Source: Methanomassiliicoccales archaeon | GTDB lineage: Archaea > Thermoplasmatota > Thermoplasmata > Methanomassiliicoccales > UBA472 | NCBI GenBank assembly: GCA_040768245.1 | Contig: JAXGNA010000004.1 | Coordinates: 42,684 to 106,683, forward strand | Reading direction: 5' to 3' | Length of the DNA: 64,000 nt | In this document: positions 2,687 to 56,593 of the stretch, one piece after another | Layout of the letters: every line of letters starts with the position of its first letter | How positions within the stretch are numbered: position 1 is the first letter of the stretch | Position numbers and translations under genes: made by a program | The notes under the pieces: generated by a model | Told to the model about the DNA's origin: nothing | Database searches by the model: none | What the model saw: only the letters and a program-made list of their open reading frames with translations

Positions 2687-3760
2687 TTGCGGATCGTCGA
2701 GGTAAACGCTTTCCACTATCCTTTTATCGGCGGCATAGAGAACCGCCTGCACCACGTCTGCCGGAGGCTTGGAAAGGAGCACGAGGTGTTCGTGCTCACC
2801 AGCCGCCTGCCGGGAACGGAGGAGAGGGAGGAGATGGACAACTACACCGTCATCCGTCTTCCCTCGAGATACCTGAACATCTACAATCCGCCTTACGTCC
2901 GAATTGCCAAGGTGCGCGAGGCTTTGAACGATATTGCACCGGACATCGTGGACCTTCATTATCGCTGGGCCGGCTCGCTGATCAAAGGCGTCCTCGGTTA
3001 CGATGGGCCGAAGGTCTACACCTGCCACAACACCCTGGGGGAAGGCGTCGGCCTGACCCATTACGCCAGCGAGCTGAACGATCGCATGTTCCTGCGTCAC
3101 CTGCACCAATTCGATAAGGTGATCTGCGTCTCTGACTATATGAAGAGGGACGTGGCCGCCCGCGGTTTCTCCGAGGACCGGCTGCAGACCATCTACAATG
3201 GCGTGGACATCCCAGAAGTACCCTGCCAGGACGGCGATTACATTCTGTCCCTGGGACGGCTGGTCCGGCTGAAGGGACTGGACACTTTGATAAGGGCGAT
3301 GCGACACACCAAATGCCAGCTGCGCATCTGCGGCGAGGGCCCGGAACGCAGGAACCTGGAAAAGTTGTCGCAGCATCTGGGCCTGACCGACCGCATCGAC
3401 TTCATGGGCTGGATCAGCGAGGAGGAGAAGCGCCGTATGCTCTGCGAGTGCCGCATGTTCGTCATCCCCTCGGTGCACGAGGCCTACGGGATGGTCGCCG
3501 CGGAGGCCATGTCCTACGGTAAACCGGTCATAGCCTCGAACACCGGCGGTCTCCCGGAGGTGGTGGGCGAGGCCGGGATCCTGGTCCCGCCGCAGGACGA
3601 TGGGGCCCTGGCGGAAGCGATCAACGCCCTGGACGGAGACGCGGACAAACGTCAAGCATTGGGCGGCGCGGCCAGGGAGAGGATGAGAGGATTCAGCTGG
3701 GACGAGGTGGCCAGGCGCACCCTGCTCGTTTATCAGGACATCGTTGAAGGTCAGAGCTGA
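2687..3760 (+). CDS. Glycosyltransferase family 4 (GT-B)
   Basis: YPFIGGIE, IYNGVD, GRLVRLKG, EAYGMVAAEAMSYGKPVIAS motifs. Confidence 0.92.
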   Translation: MRIVEVNAFHYPFIGGIENRLHHVCRRLGKEHEVFVLTSRLPGTEEREEMDNYTVIRLPSRYLNIYNPPYVRIAKVREALNDIAPDIVDLHYRWAGSLIKGVLGYDGPKVYTCHNTLGEGVGLTHYASELNDRMFLRHLHQFDKVICVSDYMKRDVAARGFSEDRLQTIYNGVDIPEVPCQDGDYILSLGRLVRLKGLDTLIRAMRHTKCQLRICGEGPERRNLEKLSQHLGLTDRIDFMGWISEEEKRRMLCECRMFVIPSVHEAYGMVAAEAMSYGKPVIASNTGGLPEVVGEAGILVPPQDDGALAEAINALDGDADKRQALGGAARERMRGFSWDEVARRTLLVYQDIVEGQS

Positions 3761-4497
3761 ACGAGCGTCATACTGGTCATTTCGTCCGTGTACATCCGCC
3801 CCTGCCCGAAGCTCACTTCGAGAACGTGACCGCCGTAGGACAGATCATCGCTCAGGAAATGCAGGTGGAATCCCGCCAGGTTGATCTCCCCCAGCCCGCT
3901 GGACATTATGAACCCCACCAGCGTTCCCTGGACGTTATGGAGGACCAGGGTGCTCTGCTCGGCTATCACATCGACCAGGGGTGGATAGGGGACCTGCTGC
4001 CCTGGGACGCTTCGAATGGTGATGGAATCGAACTCCGCCTCCAGCATGACCGCCACGGCCACGCGGGGACGCGGCCGGTCCGCCATTCCGCCGTACAGGT
4101 CCTTCAGCTCGTCGTAATCGTCAATGTCCGCCATGACGGAGATGGCATCGGTGGAGAACCTGGTGACCATGGCGAAGGGGATCATGGTGCCCGAGGGGAC
4201 CTCCTTCGGGACCAGGTCCGTCCCGGCCCGGTAGGCCGTCCCGTCCAGGATGATCATCTCCCCGTCTATGCCTTCCACGGTCCCGATGCCGAAGTCCCCG
4301 TGCTCCAGCAGGCGGTCCACTGTCATCACTCCCTCGTAGTGCCCTTGGCTTAGGCGCCCGTATGTTGACACCTGGTAATATGGATCTATAGCTGAACCGT
4401 CATCACCACCAGGCGCCATCCAGTATCCCACCAGTCCGCTGGATAGCATCAGGATCGCCACGCCCATGGCGAACGCCCAACCCCCCGCCTTGGCCAT
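3751..4497 (-). CDS. budA: Alpha-acetolactate decarboxylase with N-terminal hydrophobic segment
   Basis: YQVST, HGDFGIGT..GIDGEMIILDG, GFHLHF...GGHVL Zn-binding motif. Confidence 0.88.
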   Translation of the reverse strand: MAKAGGWAFAMGVAILMLSSGLVGYWMAPGGDDGSAIDPYYQVSTYGRLSQGHYEGVMTVDRLLEHGDFGIGTVEGIDGEMIILDGTAYRAGTDLVPKEVPSGTMIPFAMVTRFSTDAISVMADIDDYDELKDLYGGMADRPRPRVAVAVMLEAEFDSITIRSVPGQQVPYPPLVDVIAEQSTLVLHNVQGTLVGFIMSSGLGEINLAGFHLHFLSDDLSYGGHVLEVSFGQGRMYTDEMTSMTLVQL

Positions 4498-4557: not shown

Positions 4558-5673
4558 TCATTTCAGGGCGTGCATGGCCGCGACCACCGCGTCGCCCATC
4601 TGCCTGGTGGTGGCCTTGCCCCCCAGGTCCTGGGTGTAGACGCCCTTGTCGAAGGCGCCCCTGACGCCCTTGAAGATGACCTCCCCCAGGTCCCGGCGGC
4701 CCAGGTTGTCCATCATCATCTTGGCCGCGAGTATCGTGGCCACTGGGTTGATTCGGTCCATGCCCTTGTACTTGGGAGCGGAGCCGTGAACAGGTTCGAA
4801 CATGGATATGCCCTTGGGGTTGATGTTGCCCCCCGGCGCCAAGCCAAGCCCGCCGGTCACCTCGGCCAGAAGGTCGGTGATTATGTCCCCGAACATGTTG
4901 GGCACGGCGATCACCCGGAACTTGTCCGGATTCTTGACCAGGGCCATGGTCATGGCGTCGACGTACATGTAGCCGTGCTCCTTGCCCGCCCGCTTGCACT
5001 TCTCGTCCCAGACCTCCCTCCACAGGGAGTAGATGTTGCTGCACACATTGGCCTTGTCCACCACGGTGATGTAGTTCTCCCCGATGAGGTTGGAGAAATC
5101 GATGACATGGTCGGCGAACCGCTCGATGTTCTTGCGGGACATCATGCCTATCTCGAAGGCGAAGTCGTCAGCCGCATCGGCGTTCGCGTCCAGCCGGACC
5201 TTCATATCGTACAGCTGACGCTTCACCCGGAGGTCCAAGGTGCCTTTTCCGTTGGAGACCCGACCTCCAGCGCCGATGTAGTAGTCCTCGGTGTTCTCCC
5301 GGAACACGTCTATGTTGAAGTCGACGTCCCTCTTCAACCGCCCGAATGGCTTCCAGAGCGGGGCCGGCCGGTGGTTGATGTATTGATCAAAGTTGAACCG
5401 GAGCGCCAGGAGTATCCCCTTCTCCAGCACTCCCGGCTTCACCCGGTCGTCGCCTATCGCGCCTAGGAATATGCTGTCGAACCTGCGCAGCTGGTCGATG
5501 TCCTCCTCCGTCACCAGCTTCCCGGTGCTCAGATACCTCTCGGAATTGATGTTGAACTCCTGGAGGTCGAACTTCACCGAGTAGTTCTCGGAAAGGGCGT
5601 TCAGAACCTTCAGGCCCTCGGCCACGACCTCCGGGCCGATGCCGTCCCCTGGCAGTACCGCTATCTTGTGCAT
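4558..5673 (-). CDS. leuB: 3-isopropylmalate dehydrogenase
   Basis: [35 protein letters not shown]; last gene of leu operon; start at ATG 5673. Confidence 0.9.
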
Positions 5674-6155
5674 CTCTTCTCCTCCTTGATCTTGGCCATG
5701 AGGCCGCCCTTGTCCATGAGCTCCTGGACGAACTTCGGGAAGGGGGCGAACTTCCACTCCTTCCCCTTGCTGTGGTTGATAATGATCCCCTTGGCGAGGT
5801 CCACCGATAGCACATCGCCGTCGTCCGCCTCGACCGTGCATTCCACTGGCAGCAGACCGGTGTTTATGCAGTTGCGGTAGAATATCCTGGCATAGCTTTC
5901 GGCCACCACACAGGAAATGCCCATCTGCAGCAGCGCCCGCGGAGCGTGCTCCCGGCTCGACCCGCAGCCGAAGTTGCGACCGGCGACTATGATATCGCCC
6001 TTCTCGACCTGCTTGGCCATCTCTGGCCGGACCTTCTCGAAGGCGAACGTGCCCAGCTTGTCGTTGTTATCGCTGGTCAGCCGTTCGGCCGGAATTATCT
6101 GGTCGGTGTCCACATGATCGCCGAAGCGCCAAACCTTGCCCTTCACGTTCCTCAT
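5661..6155 (-). CDS. leuD: 3-isopropylmalate dehydratase small subunit
   Basis: GDHVDTDQIIP, GRNFGCGSSREHA. Confidence 0.93.
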   Translation of the reverse strand: MRNVKGKVWRFGDHVDTDQIIPAERLTSDNNDKLGTFAFEKVRPEMAKQVEKGDIIVAGRNFGCGSSREHAPRALLQMGISCVVAESYARIFYRNCINTGLLPVECTVEADDGDVLSVDLAKGIIINHSKGKEWKFAPFPKFVQELMDKGGLMAKIKEEKRCTR

Positions 6156-7420
6156 TGGACCGCCTCCAGGTCCCGGGGGTCGGTTATGCGTCCGGTTACC
6201 GCGGAAGCGGCCACCACGGCCGGCCCGGCCAGGTATACCTCGGAATCCCGGTGCCCCATACGGCCGATGAAATTACGGTTGGTGCTGCTGACGCACCTCT
6301 CGCCGGGGGCTAGTATCCCCATGTGCCCGCCCAGGCATGCTCCGCAGGTAGGCCCGGAGACGAACGCCCCGGCCCTGGAGAACTCGGCCAGCAGCCCTTC
6401 GGCCATGGCCTGCTCGAACACTTTGACCGAGGCGGGAACAACCACCATTCGCACGTCCTGGTGCACCTTCCGCCCGCGCATGATCTCTGCCGCCAATCGT
6501 AGGTCCTCGATGCGACCGTTGGTGCACGAACCAAGATAGGCCTGATCGATCTGGACCTTGACGTCCCTGGCCACCTTCCCGTTGGACGGCAGATGTGGCA
6601 TGGCCACCATGCTCTCCAAGGAGGATAGGTCGTATTCCAGGGTACGTTCGTAGGACGCGCCGTCGTCCGGCAGGGTCGCCTTGAACCCTTCCTTCCGAAC
6701 GGTCTTCATGTAGGCCACCGTGGCCGCGTCACACGGGAATATGCCGGCCTTCCCGCCGGCCTCGATGGCCATGTTGGATACGGAAAGCCTATCGGAGATG
6801 GTCAATGACGAAACGCCGGTGCCTCCGAACTCCAGGGCCTTGTACGTAGCGCCGTCCACGCCGATGTCGCTGATCAGCTTGAGCACCAGGTCCTTACCGC
6901 CCACGTACTTGGACGGCCGTCCCTTCAGCAGTATCCGGATCGACCCGGGTACCTTGAACCAAAGCTGGCCGGTGGCGAAGACCGCCGCCGCCTCCGAACT
7001 GCCGACACCGGTGGCGAAGGCGTTGACCCCGCCGTAGGTGCAGGTGTGGGAGTCCGCCCCGACCACGAGGGCCCCAGGATAAGCGAAGCCGTTATCCAGC
7101 ATGACCTGGTGGCATACACCTCCTCGACCTACTTCGAAGTAGTTCTTGATGCCCCAGCGCTTGGCGAAATCGCGCATCTCCTTGGCCTGCTTGGCCGAAG
7201 CGACGTCCTTGTTGGGCACGAAGTGGTCCGGAACCAGCACGATCTTCTCGCGCACCGGCTCGCACTCCAGGGCCTCGAACTCCTGGAAGGCCAGCGGCCC
7301 GGTCACATCGTTCACCATGACGTGGTCCACGTCCGCCTCGACGATGTCCCCCGCCCTGGCGTCCGTTCTGGACTTCAGGGACAGTATCTTCTCCGATATG
7401 GTCTTGGGATCCGTTCTCAT
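6152..7420 (-). CDS. leuC: 3-isopropylmalate dehydratase large subunit
   Basis: GADSHTCT, GSCTNGR, CGACLG, STNRNFIGRMG. Confidence 0.94.
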   Translation of the reverse strand: MRTDPKTISEKILSLKSRTDARAGDIVEADVDHVMVNDVTGPLAFQEFEALECEPVREKIVLVPDHFVPNKDVASAKQAKEMRDFAKRWGIKNYFEVGRGGVCHQVMLDNGFAYPGALVVGADSHTCTYGGVNAFATGVGSSEAAAVFATGQLWFKVPGSIRILLKGRPSKYVGGKDLVLKLISDIGVDGATYKALEFGGTGVSSLTISDRLSVSNMAIEAGGKAGIFPCDAATVAYMKTVRKEGFKATLPDDGASYERTLEYDLSSLESMVAMPHLPSNGKVARDVKVQIDQAYLGSCTNGRIEDLRLAAEIMRGRKVHQDVRMVVVPASVKVFEQAMAEGLLAEFSRAGAFVSGPTCGACLGGHMGILAPGERCVSSTNRNFIGRMGHRDSEVYLAGPAVVAASAVTGRITDPRDLEAVQ

Positions 7421-7429
7421 CTCTTCACC

Positions 7430-9034
7430 TTAGGATCTGTGCCTGGCCAGCAGGCGGTCTATCGCGGCCATCGCGGCGTCCACGCTGGTGAGCACGATGT
7501 CCGAGCCGATGCTCTTGCCCACCGACATAACCTTCTGGTCACCGTTCATCCTGAGCTTCACGGTGACCTCGCAGAGGGCGTCGCTGCCCCCGGTTATGGC
7601 GTTCAGGCGGTATTCTACCAGCGATATGTTCTCGCTCACCGCGGTACGTATCGCGTTGAGCGCCGCGTCCACCGGTCCGATGCCTACGTCCGAGGAACGG
7701 ACCATCTTTCCGTCCACCTCTATGACCACGGTCGACGTGGGAGTTATGTTCATGCCGGTGAACACCGTGAACTCCTTTAGCTTTACATGCTGATGCCCTT
7801 GGTCCGCCTGGCCCTGGATGTGCAGGGCGAGCGCCACCAGTTCGGCGTCGTCCACCTCCTTGCCGCTCTCGGCCAGGGTCTTGATCTTCTCGACGACGGT
7901 GGCCAGCATATCCTCGGGAAGGCAGACGCCATACTCGCCCAGCTTCTCCTTGACCGAGTGGGCCCCGGTGTGCTTGCCCATCACGATGTTGCGCTGCATG
8001 CCCACCAGCTCCGGGGAGAAGGCCTCATAGGTGGAAGGGTCCTTGAGCACCCCGTGCACGTGAATGCCCGATTCATGCGCAAAGGCGTTGTTGCCGACGA
8101 TGGCCTTGGTGTCCGGGACGGGTACGCCGGTCATGCGGGCCACCGCCCGGGAGGTCATCCCGAGCTTCCGGGTGTCCACGTTGGTGCGCACGTTCAGGAA
8201 GGCCAGCAGGCTCATCACCACTTCCTCGAGAGCGGCGTTCCCTGCCCGCTCCCCGAGACCGTTCACGCAGACGTGCACCTGGCGAGCGCCCTTGCGGACC
8301 GCCGCCATGGAGTTGGCCACCGCCAGGCCGAAATCGTCGTGGCAATGGATGGATAGCGGCACCTTGGTCACCTTCATCACCTCCGAGACCAGGTATTCCA
8401 TGGCCGCCGGGGACATGGTGCCTACGGTGTCCGGCAGGTTGATCTTGTGAACTCCGGCCTCCTGGACCGCCACATGCATCTCCTTCAGGAAGTCCAGTTC
8501 GGTCCGGGTGCCGTCCTCGCAGGAGAACTCCACGGTGACCCCCCGGGACCGAGCGTACTCGACGGCGTCCACCGCCCGGGCCTTGACCTGCTCCCTGGTC
8601 ATCTTCAGCTTGTTCTTCATGTGCCCTTCGGAGGTGGCGATGAAGGTGTGCACGTAATCCACGCCATTGTCGACCGCGGAATCGATGTCCTCCCGGGAGC
8701 AGCGGGCCAGGCCGCAGACCTTGGCCCTCAGTCCCAGGGAGCTGATCTTGCGGATGGCCTCCTGCTCGCCTTTGGAGGTGCGGGGGAAGCCGGCCTCGAT
8801 GACGTCCACGCCGAGCTCGTCCAGCAGCTGCGCTATCCGCACCTTGTCGTCCATGGACAGGGCGACGCCGGGGGTCTGCTCGCCATCACGAAGGGTGGTG
8901 TCCAGTATCTCCACCTTTTCTGGCGTGCAGGGGTCCAAGGCCAAGCGGTTGAAGTGACTGGTGAATATACTTTCCGCCTCTTGCCCGTCACGGGCGCTAT
9001 GGTCCTGACTGCACGACGATCGAAGTTCGGTCAT
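7430..9034 (-). CDS. leuA: 2-isopropylmalate synthase (LeuA/CimA family) with C-terminal regulatory domain
   Basis: DTTLRDGEQ, HTFIATS, HCHDDFGLA, GLGERAGNA, HESGIH, GPVDA; start uncertain (ATG 9034 chosen). Confidence 0.88.
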   Translation of the reverse strand: MTELRSSCSQDHSARDGQEAESIFTSHFNRLALDPCTPEKVEILDTTLRDGEQTPGVALSMDDKVRIAQLLDELGVDVIEAGFPRTSKGEQEAIRKISSLGLRAKVCGLARCSREDIDSAVDNGVDYVHTFIATSEGHMKNKLKMTREQVKARAVDAVEYARSRGVTVEFSCEDGTRTELDFLKEMHVAVQEAGVHKINLPDTVGTMSPAAMEYLVSEVMKVTKVPLSIHCHDDFGLAVANSMAAVRKGARQVHVCVNGLGERAGNAALEEVVMSLLAFLNVRTNVDTRKLGMTSRAVARMTGVPVPDTKAIVGNNAFAHESGIHVHGVLKDPSTYEAFSPELVGMQRNIVMGKHTGAHSVKEKLGEYGVCLPEDMLATVVEKIKTLAESGKEVDDAELVALALHIQGQADQGHQHVKLKEFTVFTGMNITPTSTVVIEVDGKMVRSSDVGIGPVDAALNAIRTAVSENISLVEYRLNAITGGSDALCEVTVKLRMNGDQKVMSVGKSIGSDIVLTSVDAAMAAIDRLLARHRS

Positions 9035-9076
9035 GATAACCAACTCTCACATCCAAGGTCGCAGCGATGAGCCGAT

Positions 9077-9127
9077 TTAAGCACGCAAAAGACCGTGTTC
9101 CGCCACGATAATGATGCTCATCGTCAT
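9077..9127 (-). CDS. Putative leader peptide MTMSIIIVAEHGLLRA of the leu operon
   Basis: GAGGT SD, then ATG ACG ATG AGC ATC ATT ATC GTG GCG GAA CAC GGT CTT TTG CGT GCT TAA, between the TATA box and leuA. Confidence 0.65.
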   Translation of the reverse strand: MTMSIIIVAEHGLLRA

Positions 9128-9161
9128 ACCTCGTATGTAGTTGAGGGAAACTAGAAGCATA

Positions 9162-9169
9162 TTATATAA
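9162..9169 (-). promoter_or_regulatory. TATA box of leader/leu operon
   Basis: TTATATAA about 35 nt upstream of the leader ATG. Confidence 0.65.
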
Positions 9170-9192
9170 TCATTGCTAAGGTCTGACACGGT

Positions 9193-9822
9193 TCAGACGC
9201 CGCGCCGCTCTCCCCAGATCAGCTTATGCAGCTGCGGCAGCACCCGCACCTCCAGATGGTGACCGAGGACGAACTCCACCACCGGGGCCAGCGTGAGACC
9301 GCCCACCGGGGTGAAGATCACCGGGCAGTCCGGTCGATATTTCCGCAGCACCTCCTCCGCCCTCTCCAGGTCCTCCTTGTCGGCCACCACGAACTTCAGC
9401 TGGTCCTTCGGCCTCAGACGCCCCAGGTTCTCCGCGAGCATTCTGTCCTCCATCCCGGAGGAGGGACATTTGTAATCCATGCTGACCATCAGCTCCGGAT
9501 GCTCTGGCAGACCAGCTATGGAAAGCGAGCCGTTCGTCTCCAGGGAGACGTGCTTCCCTTCCTCCAGCAGTCTGGAGATGAGGTTCGGGGTCCCGGCGTG
9601 CCAAAGAGGCTCGCCGCCGGTCAAGCACACATGCCTGGTACGGTAACCGTTCACCCCGGCCATCACCTCGTCCACGGACAGTTCCGACCCGCCCTCCTCC
9701 GCGTAACGCGTATCGCACCACCGGCAATCGAGGTTGCAGCCGCTGAGACGGACGAACACCGTCGGCAGGCCCATGGTCCTCCCCTCCCCCTGGATGGAGA
9801 GGAACATCTCATTGACCAGCAT
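9193..9822 (-). CDS. queE: 7-carboxy-7-deazaguanine synthase (radical SAM)
   Basis: MLVNEMFLSIQGEG, GCNLDCRWCDT, LTGGEP, LPQLHK; clustered with queC/queD. Confidence 0.93.
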   Translation of the reverse strand: MLVNEMFLSIQGEGRTMGLPTVFVRLSGCNLDCRWCDTRYAEEGGSELSVDEVMAGVNGYRTRHVCLTGGEPLWHAGTPNLISRLLEEGKHVSLETNGSLSIAGLPEHPELMVSMDYKCPSSGMEDRMLAENLGRLRPKDQLKFVVADKEDLERAEEVLRKYRPDCPVIFTPVGGLTLAPVVEFVLGHHLEVRVLPQLHKLIWGERRGV

Positions 9823-55489: not shown

Positions 55490-56593
55490 ATGGCACTAGC
55501 AGCTGAGATATTAGGTTTGTTGATACTGGCCATCATCGCGGCCATCGTGATATTGGTCAATGGTGTCAAGATAGTTAGACCGTACGAACAGGCGGTGTAC
55601 ATCCGTCTGGGCATGTTCATGAGAGTGCTGAACCCGGGTTTCAACTACGTCGCCCCGCTGATCAACGAGACGGTGAAGCTGGACCTGAGGACGCAGGTGC
55701 TGGACGTTCCCAGGCAAGAGGTCATCACCAAGGACAACTCCCCGGTGAACGTGGACGCCATCATCTATGTCAAGGTGGTCGATCCCAAGAAGGCCTTCTT
55801 CGAGGTCACCGACTACAGGGCGGCGACGGTCTACCTGGCCCAGACCACCCTGAGGTCCATAATAGGGGACATGGAACTGGACGAGATATTGTCCAACCGC
55901 GAGAAGATCAACCTGAAGCTCAGGGACATTCTGGACGAGGCTACCGACCAGTGGGGCGTAAAGGTGGACGCGGTGGAGATCAGGGAGATAGACCCGGCCC
56001 CCAAGGTCAAGCAGGCCATGGAGGAGCAGACCTCCGCGGAGAGGCTGAGAAGGGCGGCCATCCTGAAGGCCGACGGTGCTAAGACCGCGGCCATCCTGAA
56101 CGCGGAAGGTGAGAAGCGGTCTCGGGTACTGCAGGCCGAGGGTCTGCGTCAGGCCAAGATCCTGGAGGCGGAAGGAGAGCGACTGGCCATCATCCTGGAG
56201 AGCCAGGGTGAGTCCCAGAAGCTCAGGATACTCAGCGTGGGTGCCAGCACTCTGGACTCCAAGGCCCTGACCGTGCTCTCCCTGGAGGCGGTCAAGAAAC
56301 TGGGCGAAGGACAGTCCACCAAGATCGTCCTGCCCTTCGAGGTCACCCGGCTGGTGGAGGGCATCTCCGATTACGTCGGAGCGGGAAAGCAGGTCCCGGA
56401 GAGGGAGATATCCAAGCCCGAGGAGCTGGAGAAGTTCGTCGGAAAGGCGGACGACATCCTGGGACCGATACCCACCATGGCCGAGCTGAGAGCGGACATG
56501 AAGGAGCTAGAGGTGGCCATGGCCCAGGAAAGGCGCGAGGCTGAGGCCATCAAGGCAGGAAGCAGGGTCTCCCTGGAGAAGGACCGCGCTTGA
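55490..56593 (+). CDS. SPFH/stomatin (band 7) protein
   Basis: DLRTQVLDVPRQEVITKDN, AQTTLRSIIG.MELDE, WGVKV, AERLRRA.IL.A.G. Confidence 0.93.
   Translation: MALAAEILGLLILAIIAAIVILVNGVKIVRPYEQAVYIRLGMFMRVLNPGFNYVAPLINETVKLDLRTQVLDVPRQEVITKDNSPVNVDAIIYVKVVDPKKAFFEVTDYRAATVYLAQTTLRSIIGDMELDEILSNREKINLKLRDILDEATDQWGVKVDAVEIREIDPAPKVKQAMEEQTSAERLRRAAILKADGAKTAAILNAEGEKRSRVLQAEGLRQAKILEAEGERLAIILESQGESQKLRILSVGASTLDSKALTVLSLEAVKKLGEGQSTKIVLPFEVTRLVEGISDYVGAGKQVPEREISKPEELEKFVGKADDILGPIPTMAELRADMKELEVAMAQERREAEAIKAGSRVSLEKDRA

Follow-up and report, generated by a model that had tools for sequence, protein, structure and literature searches.

The window, that is, the whole stretch of 64,000 nucleotides from a Methanomassiliicoccales archaeon that was analyzed, carries on its minus strand a leucine biosynthesis locus headed by leuA, which encodes 2-isopropylmalate synthase (7430-9034; 649 bits against a cut-off of 517 for NCBIfam NF002085). 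It is followed by genes for a leuC-type dehydratase large subunit (6152-7420) and a leuD-type small subunit (5661-6155), both identified with NCBIfam models, and for a leuB-type dehydrogenase (4558-5673), so that the leuA-C-D-B identities given in the preliminary description hold, with the best NCBIfam matches of the leuB-like gene lying under their cut-offs. The queE-queC-queD genes are located upstream of the leader that is the subject of this work. Downstream of leuB and in the same direction, there is an acetolactate decarboxylase-like gene (3751-4497, minus strand; TIGR01252, just below the cut-off) that encodes an N-terminal hydrophobic segment. In LeuA itself, the catalytic domain is preceded by some 40 additional N-terminal residues (9034-8915, minus strand); this extension differs in sequence across the order, and its first codons are part of the RNA helix denoted P3 below.

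All features upstream of leuA are likewise on the minus strand. The TATA box (9162-9169), whose first base in most relatives lies 46-50 nt upstream of the leader start, is preceded by a BRE-position element, TAGCAATG (9171-9178). An AGCAA-like motif recurs at this place in the promoters of relatives (leuA and some ilvB) and is found at the BRE position of only 5 of the 385 TATA-like sites in the window's genome, which makes the element a possible regulator site. The predicted 5' end of the transcript, together with the Shine-Dalgarno (SD) motif of the leader (GAGGT, 9128-9132), occupies 9128-9139 and is also the 5' arm of an outer helix, P0. The TATA box, the GAGGT motif, the exact 8-bp complementarity between 9116-9123 and 9065-9072, and the ORF of 16 codons (9127-9077) with an ATC-ATT-ATC-GTG run and a CTT-TTG pair, the stop of which lies 42 nt before the leuA ATG (9034), are all present as first described. 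The ORF is indeed SD-led, but its start was probably misplaced: the SD motif directly abuts the first ATG (9127; 0 nt) and is 6 nt from the second (9121), and the second ATG alone is retained across the genus (15 of 15 members). Given this spacing and conservation, the first ATG is disfavoured as the start, and the leader most likely consists of the 14 codons MSIIIVAEHGLLRA (9121-9077).

Within this leader, codons Leu11-Leu12 (CUU UUG, 9086-9091), the putative control codons, coincide with a U4 tract that is also a potential +1 slippery site, and directly 5' of this tract codons 5-10 can form a small hairpin (9092-9109), a possible pause or terminator-like site whose 5' arm in the window's genus is made of the ATC-GTG codons. 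This is the sole terminator-like match and it lies inside the leader ORF, and there is no classical terminator between the leader stop and leuA, in agreement with the original remark that a clear U-tract terminator is lacking after the leader. The stop is followed by a segment (9063-9077) that contributes the 3' arm of helix P1 (9065-9072) or, alternatively, the anti-SD arm of helix P2. Next comes the leuA SD region (9038-9052, with GAGTTGG at 9040-9046; GAGGTGG in most relatives), which is predicted to be sequestered in P2 or P3. The whole element spans about 110 nt and is found order-wide.

In RNA data from three studies, leuA and the leader are represented by contigs that reach 9098-9123, one of which (8735-9123) bridges the two, and 9164-9331 is left uncovered; contrary to these, a fourth run continues beyond the TATA box as far as 9167 and also has cover at 9203-9361. 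Because such contigs carry no strand, level or true ends, they are only a weak hint of a separate transcript that includes the leader.

Orthologs of leuA were identified in 189 of the 249 genomes of the order, and 91 upstream regions were taken for comparison, from most genomes of families f1-f6 with a usable match and from 20 of the 112 genomes of family f7, leaving out duplicates and truncated loci. The case made in the preliminary description depended on the upstream ORF being present in relatives, and a leader of 12-20 codons precedes leuA at 89 of the 91 loci, in 30 genera and all 7 families (f1-f7); leader starts were assigned by an SD rule and partly by manual choice among candidates, and loci from kin are not independent. 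At the two loci without a leader (L103 and L104, genus g32) another gene is directly upstream and leuA lacks a promoter, an arrangement that reads as a natural loss of leader control. Outside the 91-locus set, no SD-led leader was found at the leuA gene of L050, an archaeon with 51% identity.

A conserved feature of these leaders is leucine at a nearly fixed position. Codon 12 specifies Leu in 85 of the 89 leaders, codon 11 in 58 (otherwise Ile in 23, Phe in 7 and Gly in 1) and codon 10 in 53, and 87 leaders have at least two Leu codons within codons 9-13. When each genus is represented by one leader (n = 30), Leu, Val and Ile account for 57%, 0% and 11% of codons 9-13 and for 7%, 4% and 15% of codons 2-8, respectively, compared with genome backgrounds (long ORFs) of about 10% for Leu and about 5% for Ile. 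Taken together, the leaders of the order draw on six synonymous Leu codons, with UUG and CUU prevailing in f1-f6, and CUU and CUA in f7; in the window's genome UUG and CUU are minor codons, amounting to 9% and 13% of Leu codons in a crude ORF set. The run of three Ile codons is present in 9 of the 89 leaders, all from the window's genus (9 of its 15 members), and is replaced by IFI, INI, IKF or TDI in 5 members of the same genus. Thus, the conserved signal is leucine and not the Ile run, and the Ile3-Val run, which had been proposed as the control codons of a general branched-chain amino acid sensor, has to be abandoned in that role. As judged from these comparisons, the leuA leader is real and order-wide, and probably Leu-sensing rather than Ile-sensing.

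Several variants of the leader are of interest. In four genomes of genus g18 (L072, L074, L079 and L084), the AUG is lost and an in-frame GUG near the 5' end keeps the frame; these leaders, which are offset by six codons in the codon alignment, apparently reflect a change from SD-led to leaderless initiation, the GUG lying where the transcript is predicted to begin. At 18 loci (L018-L022, L025, L026, L029, L030 and others) the leaders are long (19-20 codons) and read through the anti-SD motif as Ser/Pro-Leu-Leu ahead of the stop, and this terminal Leu-Leu might be a second Leu stall site that directly covers the anti-SD. Leu-rich ORFs of about 19-21 codons, with a longer 5' UTR, also precede leuA at all 19 loci examined in two other families of Thermoplasmata, f10 and f30 (L243-L261), and at one locus from a third further family the ORF before leuA ends in four Leu codons.

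Folding of the 5' 92 nt yields P0 (9128-9139 with 9048-9059) outside P1 (9116-9123, an arm that includes the leader AUG, with 9065-9072), with codons 3-14 in the loop (z = -1.87). When the 5' arm is withheld, P2 forms between the post-stop segment and the leuA SD region (9063-9077 with 9038-9052; z = -1.67). In P3, the leuA SD pairs with leuA codons 1-4, so that the start codon and codons 2-4 (9023-9034) lie over the SD (z = 0.13 on its own). The single-sequence fold alone is only modestly stable, with z values from -1.5 to -1.9; that the architecture goes beyond chance is seen from its recurrence at 89 of 91 orthologous loci. The 3' arm of P0 (9048-9059) overlaps the partner strands of both P2 and P3, and its main partner is the transcript's 5' end. 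The mutually exclusive pairing envisaged previously is sound in that the post-stop segment has a competing partner, but this partner is the leuA SD region (9038-9052) and not GATGTGAG alone.

Across 47 aligned loci, P1 shows two-sided changes in 34 cells compared to 16.7 in shuffled alignments, a value that none of 500 shuffles attained, although related sequences can beat this control, and its pairing reaches 73% versus 22-56% in slid positions. This covariation of P1 across genera bears out the predicted pairing between the leader start and the post-stop segment. Among 14 members of the window's genus, P0 and P1 are 98% paired (the 5' arm of P0, 99%), with one covarying pair. For P2, the conserved post-stop motif can pair with the leuA SD in 95.6% of cells, but two-sided changes are absent and shuffled alignments do as well. 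RNAalifold, applied to 47 sequences, returns only a marginal 5-pair helix between the post-stop motif and the SD (-0.14 kcal/mol), because P0 and P3 change register between genera.

We also employed an alignment-free test in which each arm is paired with its cognate partner or with partners from other genera (20 genera of f1-f6 and 10 of f7). For P0, the cognate pairing is the stronger one in 17 of the 20 genera of f1-f6 and in 9 of the 10 of f7; the corresponding figures are 15 and 7 for P3 and 11 and 5 for P2, against 6 and 3 for a control pairing. P1 is favoured in 17 of the 20 genera of f1-f6 but in 2 of 10 in f7, where P1 as defined here is unsupported. The outer part of P3 shows no cognate preference in f1-f6 (10 of 20 genera). 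The internal hairpin (codons 5-10) is above shuffles in 9 of 20 and 3 of 10 genera; a pause hairpin is thus confined to some genera and was discarded as an order-wide feature.

The arrangement of the Leu codons relative to these helices suggests how the leader might work. In Haloferax, the ribosome footprint is 27 nt long and extends 12 nt upstream and 15-16 nt downstream of the P site (PMC7261190). In the leuA leaders, the Leu site lies about 30 nt after the leader AUG, and in 61 of the 71 loci of f1-f6 it is separated from the 3' arm of P1 by 14-15 nt (measured from the UUG-C motif to the post-stop segment), in agreement with the downstream reach of the Haloferax footprint. With this spacing and footprint, a ribosome at codons 10-12 would fit in the loop and leave both arms free, and a ribosome at the start would cover the 5' arm. 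On balance, then, we consider it probable that the leader is a ribosome-read leucine gauge, a translational switch in which a ribosome stalled on the Leu codons in the loop would free the leuA initiation site. In the proposed sequence of events, a ribosome would load on the leader during transcription and, if Leu-tRNA is short, would stall at codons 10-12, its 27-nt footprint leaving both P0/P1 arms accessible; P0/P1 would then close around the stalled ribosome and withdraw the anti-SD strand, such that leuA and subsequently leuC-D-B could be translated. If leucine is plentiful, the ribosome would reach the stop and cover the 3' arm of P1, the next ribosome would occupy the 5' arm, and P2 and P3 would bury the leuA SD. 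The untranslated RNA might then be cut by aCPSF1/FttA, making the effect also transcriptional. The gene for this protein is present in the window's genome, and on the basis of PMC8116511 and PMC11616081 aCPSF1 is a likely downstream executor of the switch.

Constrained folding of the 89 leaders with a ribosome of one footprint size is partly in line with this scheme. Moving the ribosome from the leader start to codon 11 makes the leuA site cheaper to open in 59 leaders and more costly in 14, the shift being small (mean 1.3 kcal/mol); in the window the values are 9.2 kcal/mol at codon 11 and 11.7 kcal/mol at the start, both of which fall within the range of ordinary SD-led starts of this genome (10.2, s.d. 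3.3, n = 105), and the state with the ribosome at the stop is the most open (8.2). The calculation does not separate a stall at codon 11 from a ribosome at the stop (30 of 89 leaders lower, 24 higher), so that the off-state needs re-initiation on the leader. Moreover, the ribosome-free fold resembles the on-state, with the leader SD hidden, which implies that the switch must be kinetic. Leu sensing alone also does not account for the near-invariant NUU-UUG of f1-f6. Overall, the notion of a ribosome-mediated attenuator is retained with respect to the conserved SD-led leader, the competing helices and the likely action at the level of translation, and given up with respect to Ile and Val as the signal.

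Candidate ribosome-read elements were identified at other amino acid biosynthesis genes of the order. An ORF precedes ilvB at 26 of 30 loci (three paralogous loci lack it and one is truncated), including that of the window's genome; its first codon lies some 30 nt downstream of the first base of the TATA box, that is, at the predicted 5' end, 76% of its last six codons are for Val, Ile or Leu, and a stable hairpin follows it. These are leaderless-type GUG ORFs of 20-26 codons, with the Val/Ile/Leu run at the end and a conserved GAGG...CCUC hairpin after it (L120-L146). The one in the window's genome is located upstream of position 70738 (minus strand) of contig G000:C8 (L141), and in this genus there is also a Leu-Leu-Leu in the middle of the ORF.

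Upstream of cimA, 46 of 70 loci (L147-L176 and L203-L242), including that of the window's genome, contain the cassette GGA(U/C)-3 nt-UUU-AU(U/C) with cimA in the +1 frame (22 loci lack it and 2 could not be parsed). It is absent from g13 and from all f7 loci except one. The landing codon is UUG in 27 cases, UUA in 10, UUU in 6 and UCU in 3, such that 19 loci land on a non-start codon, and 7 loci have no in-frame AUG, GUG or UUG. On the strength of this layout, the cassette is a candidate Ile-sensing +1 frameshift site. In the window's genome (G000:C7, about 90850-90910, plus strand; L153), an SD-led ORF overlaps cimA one base out of frame and contains an SD-like GGGAU, 3 nt, UUU and an Ile codon. 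Two variants, L149 and L173, have an altered frame or a lost start and are either errors or natural bypass alleles.

At 6 of the 22 trpE loci for which parsing was attempted (L177, L178, L179, L181, L182 and L183, from f2, f3 and f5), a leaderless AUG ORF contains an AGGGAU-like motif, 3 nt and CUU-UGG, with trpE in the +1 frame, which makes it a candidate Trp-sensing frameshift site; in other families trpE has a plain start and a conserved A/T-rich promoter motif. No trpE was found in the window's genome (81% complete). A short SD-led ORF before leuS in the same genome (G000:C10, about 56176-56214) was considered and rejected since it sits behind a GGAGG-rich gene end. The codon content of these elements matches the product of each pathway, which supports ribosome sensing in general and places the sensing of Ile and Val away from leuA; both appear to be gauged at other genes, cimA and ilvB.

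Several explanations compete with the translational switch. In one of these, which we regard as unlikely, leucine sensing would act directly on transcription, with the U4 tract, together with the small hairpin preceding it, being an aCPSF1/FttA loading or pause site that is shielded by the stalled ribosome, similarly to bacterial Rho-dependent attenuation. The U4 tract is present in 66 of 71 loci of f1-f6, where codon 11 varies between Leu, Ile and Phe provided that it is U-rich, and the terminator-like match (9092-9109) with its tail and the aCPSF1 gene are in place in the window's genome. FttA favours U-rich RNA, and its exclusion by a coupled ribosome has been proposed and not shown (PMC11616081, PMC8116511). 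However, the U4 tract is found in just 3 of 18 f7 loci, the hairpin is limited to the minority of genera given above, the RNA contigs from three studies bridge the leader and leuA (although they carry no levels), and this explanation does not address the covarying P0/P1 or the anti-SD complementarity.

A second explanation, which seems rather unlikely, is that leucine shortage causes a +1 slip at CUU-UUG, after which the new frame is read through the structured spacer to a UGA that overlaps the leuA AUG, resulting in translational coupling or, in some relatives, in-frame entry. Such a slip would account for the fixed NUU-UUG and has parallels in the prfB-like +1 cassettes that cimA and trpE carry in this order. 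Reading in the +1 frame continues without interruption up to a stop that overlaps the start (AUGA) in the window, in 15 of 15 members of its own genus, in 5 of 5 loci of genus g4 and altogether in 40 of 89 loci and 13 of 30 genera; the genus-averaged success is 0.47 versus 0.28 in a shuffled, frame-randomized null, compared with 0.19 versus 0.27 for the -1 frame. Against this, the overlap arises by default whenever codon 2 starts with A, the frame relation between leader and leuA drifts even within genera, and an SD-like GGAY 3 nt before the slippery codon, as at cimA and trpE, is present in 2 of the 89 leuA leaders, the window's not among them. The layout fails in 17 of the 30 genera. We rejected slippage as an order-wide mechanism and keep it as a rival for the window's genus.

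It is improbable that the ORF is incidental, the conserved motifs being instead either a site bound by a protein, at the DNA or the RNA level, or a structure that simply dampens translation, an argument made for the actinobacterial LEU element. GCAA-like words do occur three times on the DNA, at 9173-9177 and, in relatives, in reverse at the Leu codons and the post-stop motif, and for leuA of Streptomyces, leader mutations did not act as in classical attenuation (PMC1262725). Nevertheless, the ORF, its SD, its length (12-20 codons) and the Leu position survive where the nucleotide motifs do not (f7, f10 and f30), loss of the start codon is made good in frame, and the motif pair occurs once in the genome. 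Most improbable is sensing of Ile and Val besides Leu through Ile3-Val, which would match the use of LeuCD and LeuB in the citramalate route to Ile and which could draw on the Ile excess in codons 2-8, on Ile at codon 11 of 23 leaders and on the citramalate synthase of this genome, but the Ile run is restricted to, and substituted within, a single genus, the early Ile codons coincide with helix arms, and a ribosome held at codons 3-5 would obstruct P1, its modeled effect being neutral or repressing (at codon 5, opening the leuA site costs 10.5 versus 9.2 kcal/mol at codon 11).

A broader and more speculative scheme, which we consider doubtful, combines the ribosome-read Leu switch with slippage. 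The order would run three ribosome-read gauges, namely the leuA Leu leader, the leaderless ilvB leader for Val, Ile and Leu with its hairpin and the Ile-dependent +1 frameshift at cimA, and, in addition, the window's genus would have a leuA hybrid unknown from bacteria, in which the Leu-starved ribosome in the loop of the closing helix slips +1 at CUU-UUG, forces its way across the anti-SD structure and begins anew at the overlapping AUG of leuA.

Ribosome-mediated attenuation is a textbook mode of bacterial control and has so far been proven in bacteria only, and the leuA leader is its likely archaeal counterpart. With an element that is compact, order-wide and matched in codon content to its pathway, in an order that has cultured members, two questions become testable, namely whether archaea employ transcription-translation coupling in regulation and whether aCPSF1/FttA takes the role of Rho in 5' leaders. 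The geometry is unlike that of bacterial attenuators in that the control codons are in a ribosome-sized loop and the leader SD and AUG serve as the 5' arm. The enterobacterial leader-peptide attenuators, such as leuL of leuABCD and ilvL, share with the window's leader mutually exclusive helices and, ahead of the pathway's first gene, a small SD-led ORF in which rare cognate codons occur. They differ from it in that the window has no terminator hairpin with a U run between the leader stop and leuA, and in that its control codons lie in a loop closed by the leader's own SD and AUG, the target being the leuA SD. Bacterial translational attenuators of the ermC/cat type, in which stalling on an upstream ORF unmasks a downstream SD, and leaderless polycysteine sORFs of mycobacteria (10.1101/834739) are similar as regards the proposed unmasking; in contrast to these, the window's leader would respond to an amino acid, in an archaeon, and the stalled ribosome would not open its helix but be enclosed by it. 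The bacterial prfB gene has a programmed +1 frameshift, with CUU-U as the slippery context before a hungry codon and an internal SD. The CUU UUG of the leader (9086-9091) and the NUU UUG of most f1-f6 loci likewise place a slippery P-site codon before a slow A-site codon, but the leuA leaders have neither an internal SD about 3 nt before the slippery codon, apart from the two exceptions noted above, nor a consistent frame relation.

Scans against Rfam gave chance matches only, both for the window from 8800 to 9500 (E up to 10) and for 14 relatives, where E values up to 5 were considered. The leuA-Halobacteria motif (RF03001) is similar in being archaeal and named for leuA, and a leader role has been proposed for it. 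Its model (53 positions) has no match in the genome, and the control does match in Haloferax volcanii. A literature search, which covered a minority of the subscription journals, returned no paper on leader-peptide control in archaea, the only candidate being Rfam's leuA-Halobacteria; a mini-leader reported for trpY of Methanothermobacter is said to be a possible archaeal precedent. The main text of PMC5737381 does not mention leuA-Halobacteria, and its supplement may describe the motif as an attenuator, which bears on novelty. A similar layout is that of the actinobacterial LEU element, which has a Leu-codon leader before leuA, no terminator and a structure over the leuA SD, with the Leu run itself pairing with the SD and a pseudoknot being formed (PMC1262725). 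Such a LEU-type stem was rejected for the leuA leaders since the Leu codons do not prefer their cognate leuA SD as a pairing partner (-5.4 versus -5.2 kcal/mol for cognate and non-cognate partners; stronger cognate pairing in 7 of 20 genera of f1-f6 and 5 of 10 of f7). In the 18 long leaders, however, the post-stop motif is read as extra terminal Leu codons. Judging from sequence and predicted structure, the leuA leader of Methanomassiliicoccales is neither a classical attenuator nor a LEU element nor a leuA-Halobacteria motif, but would work like the leader-peptide control of bacteria.
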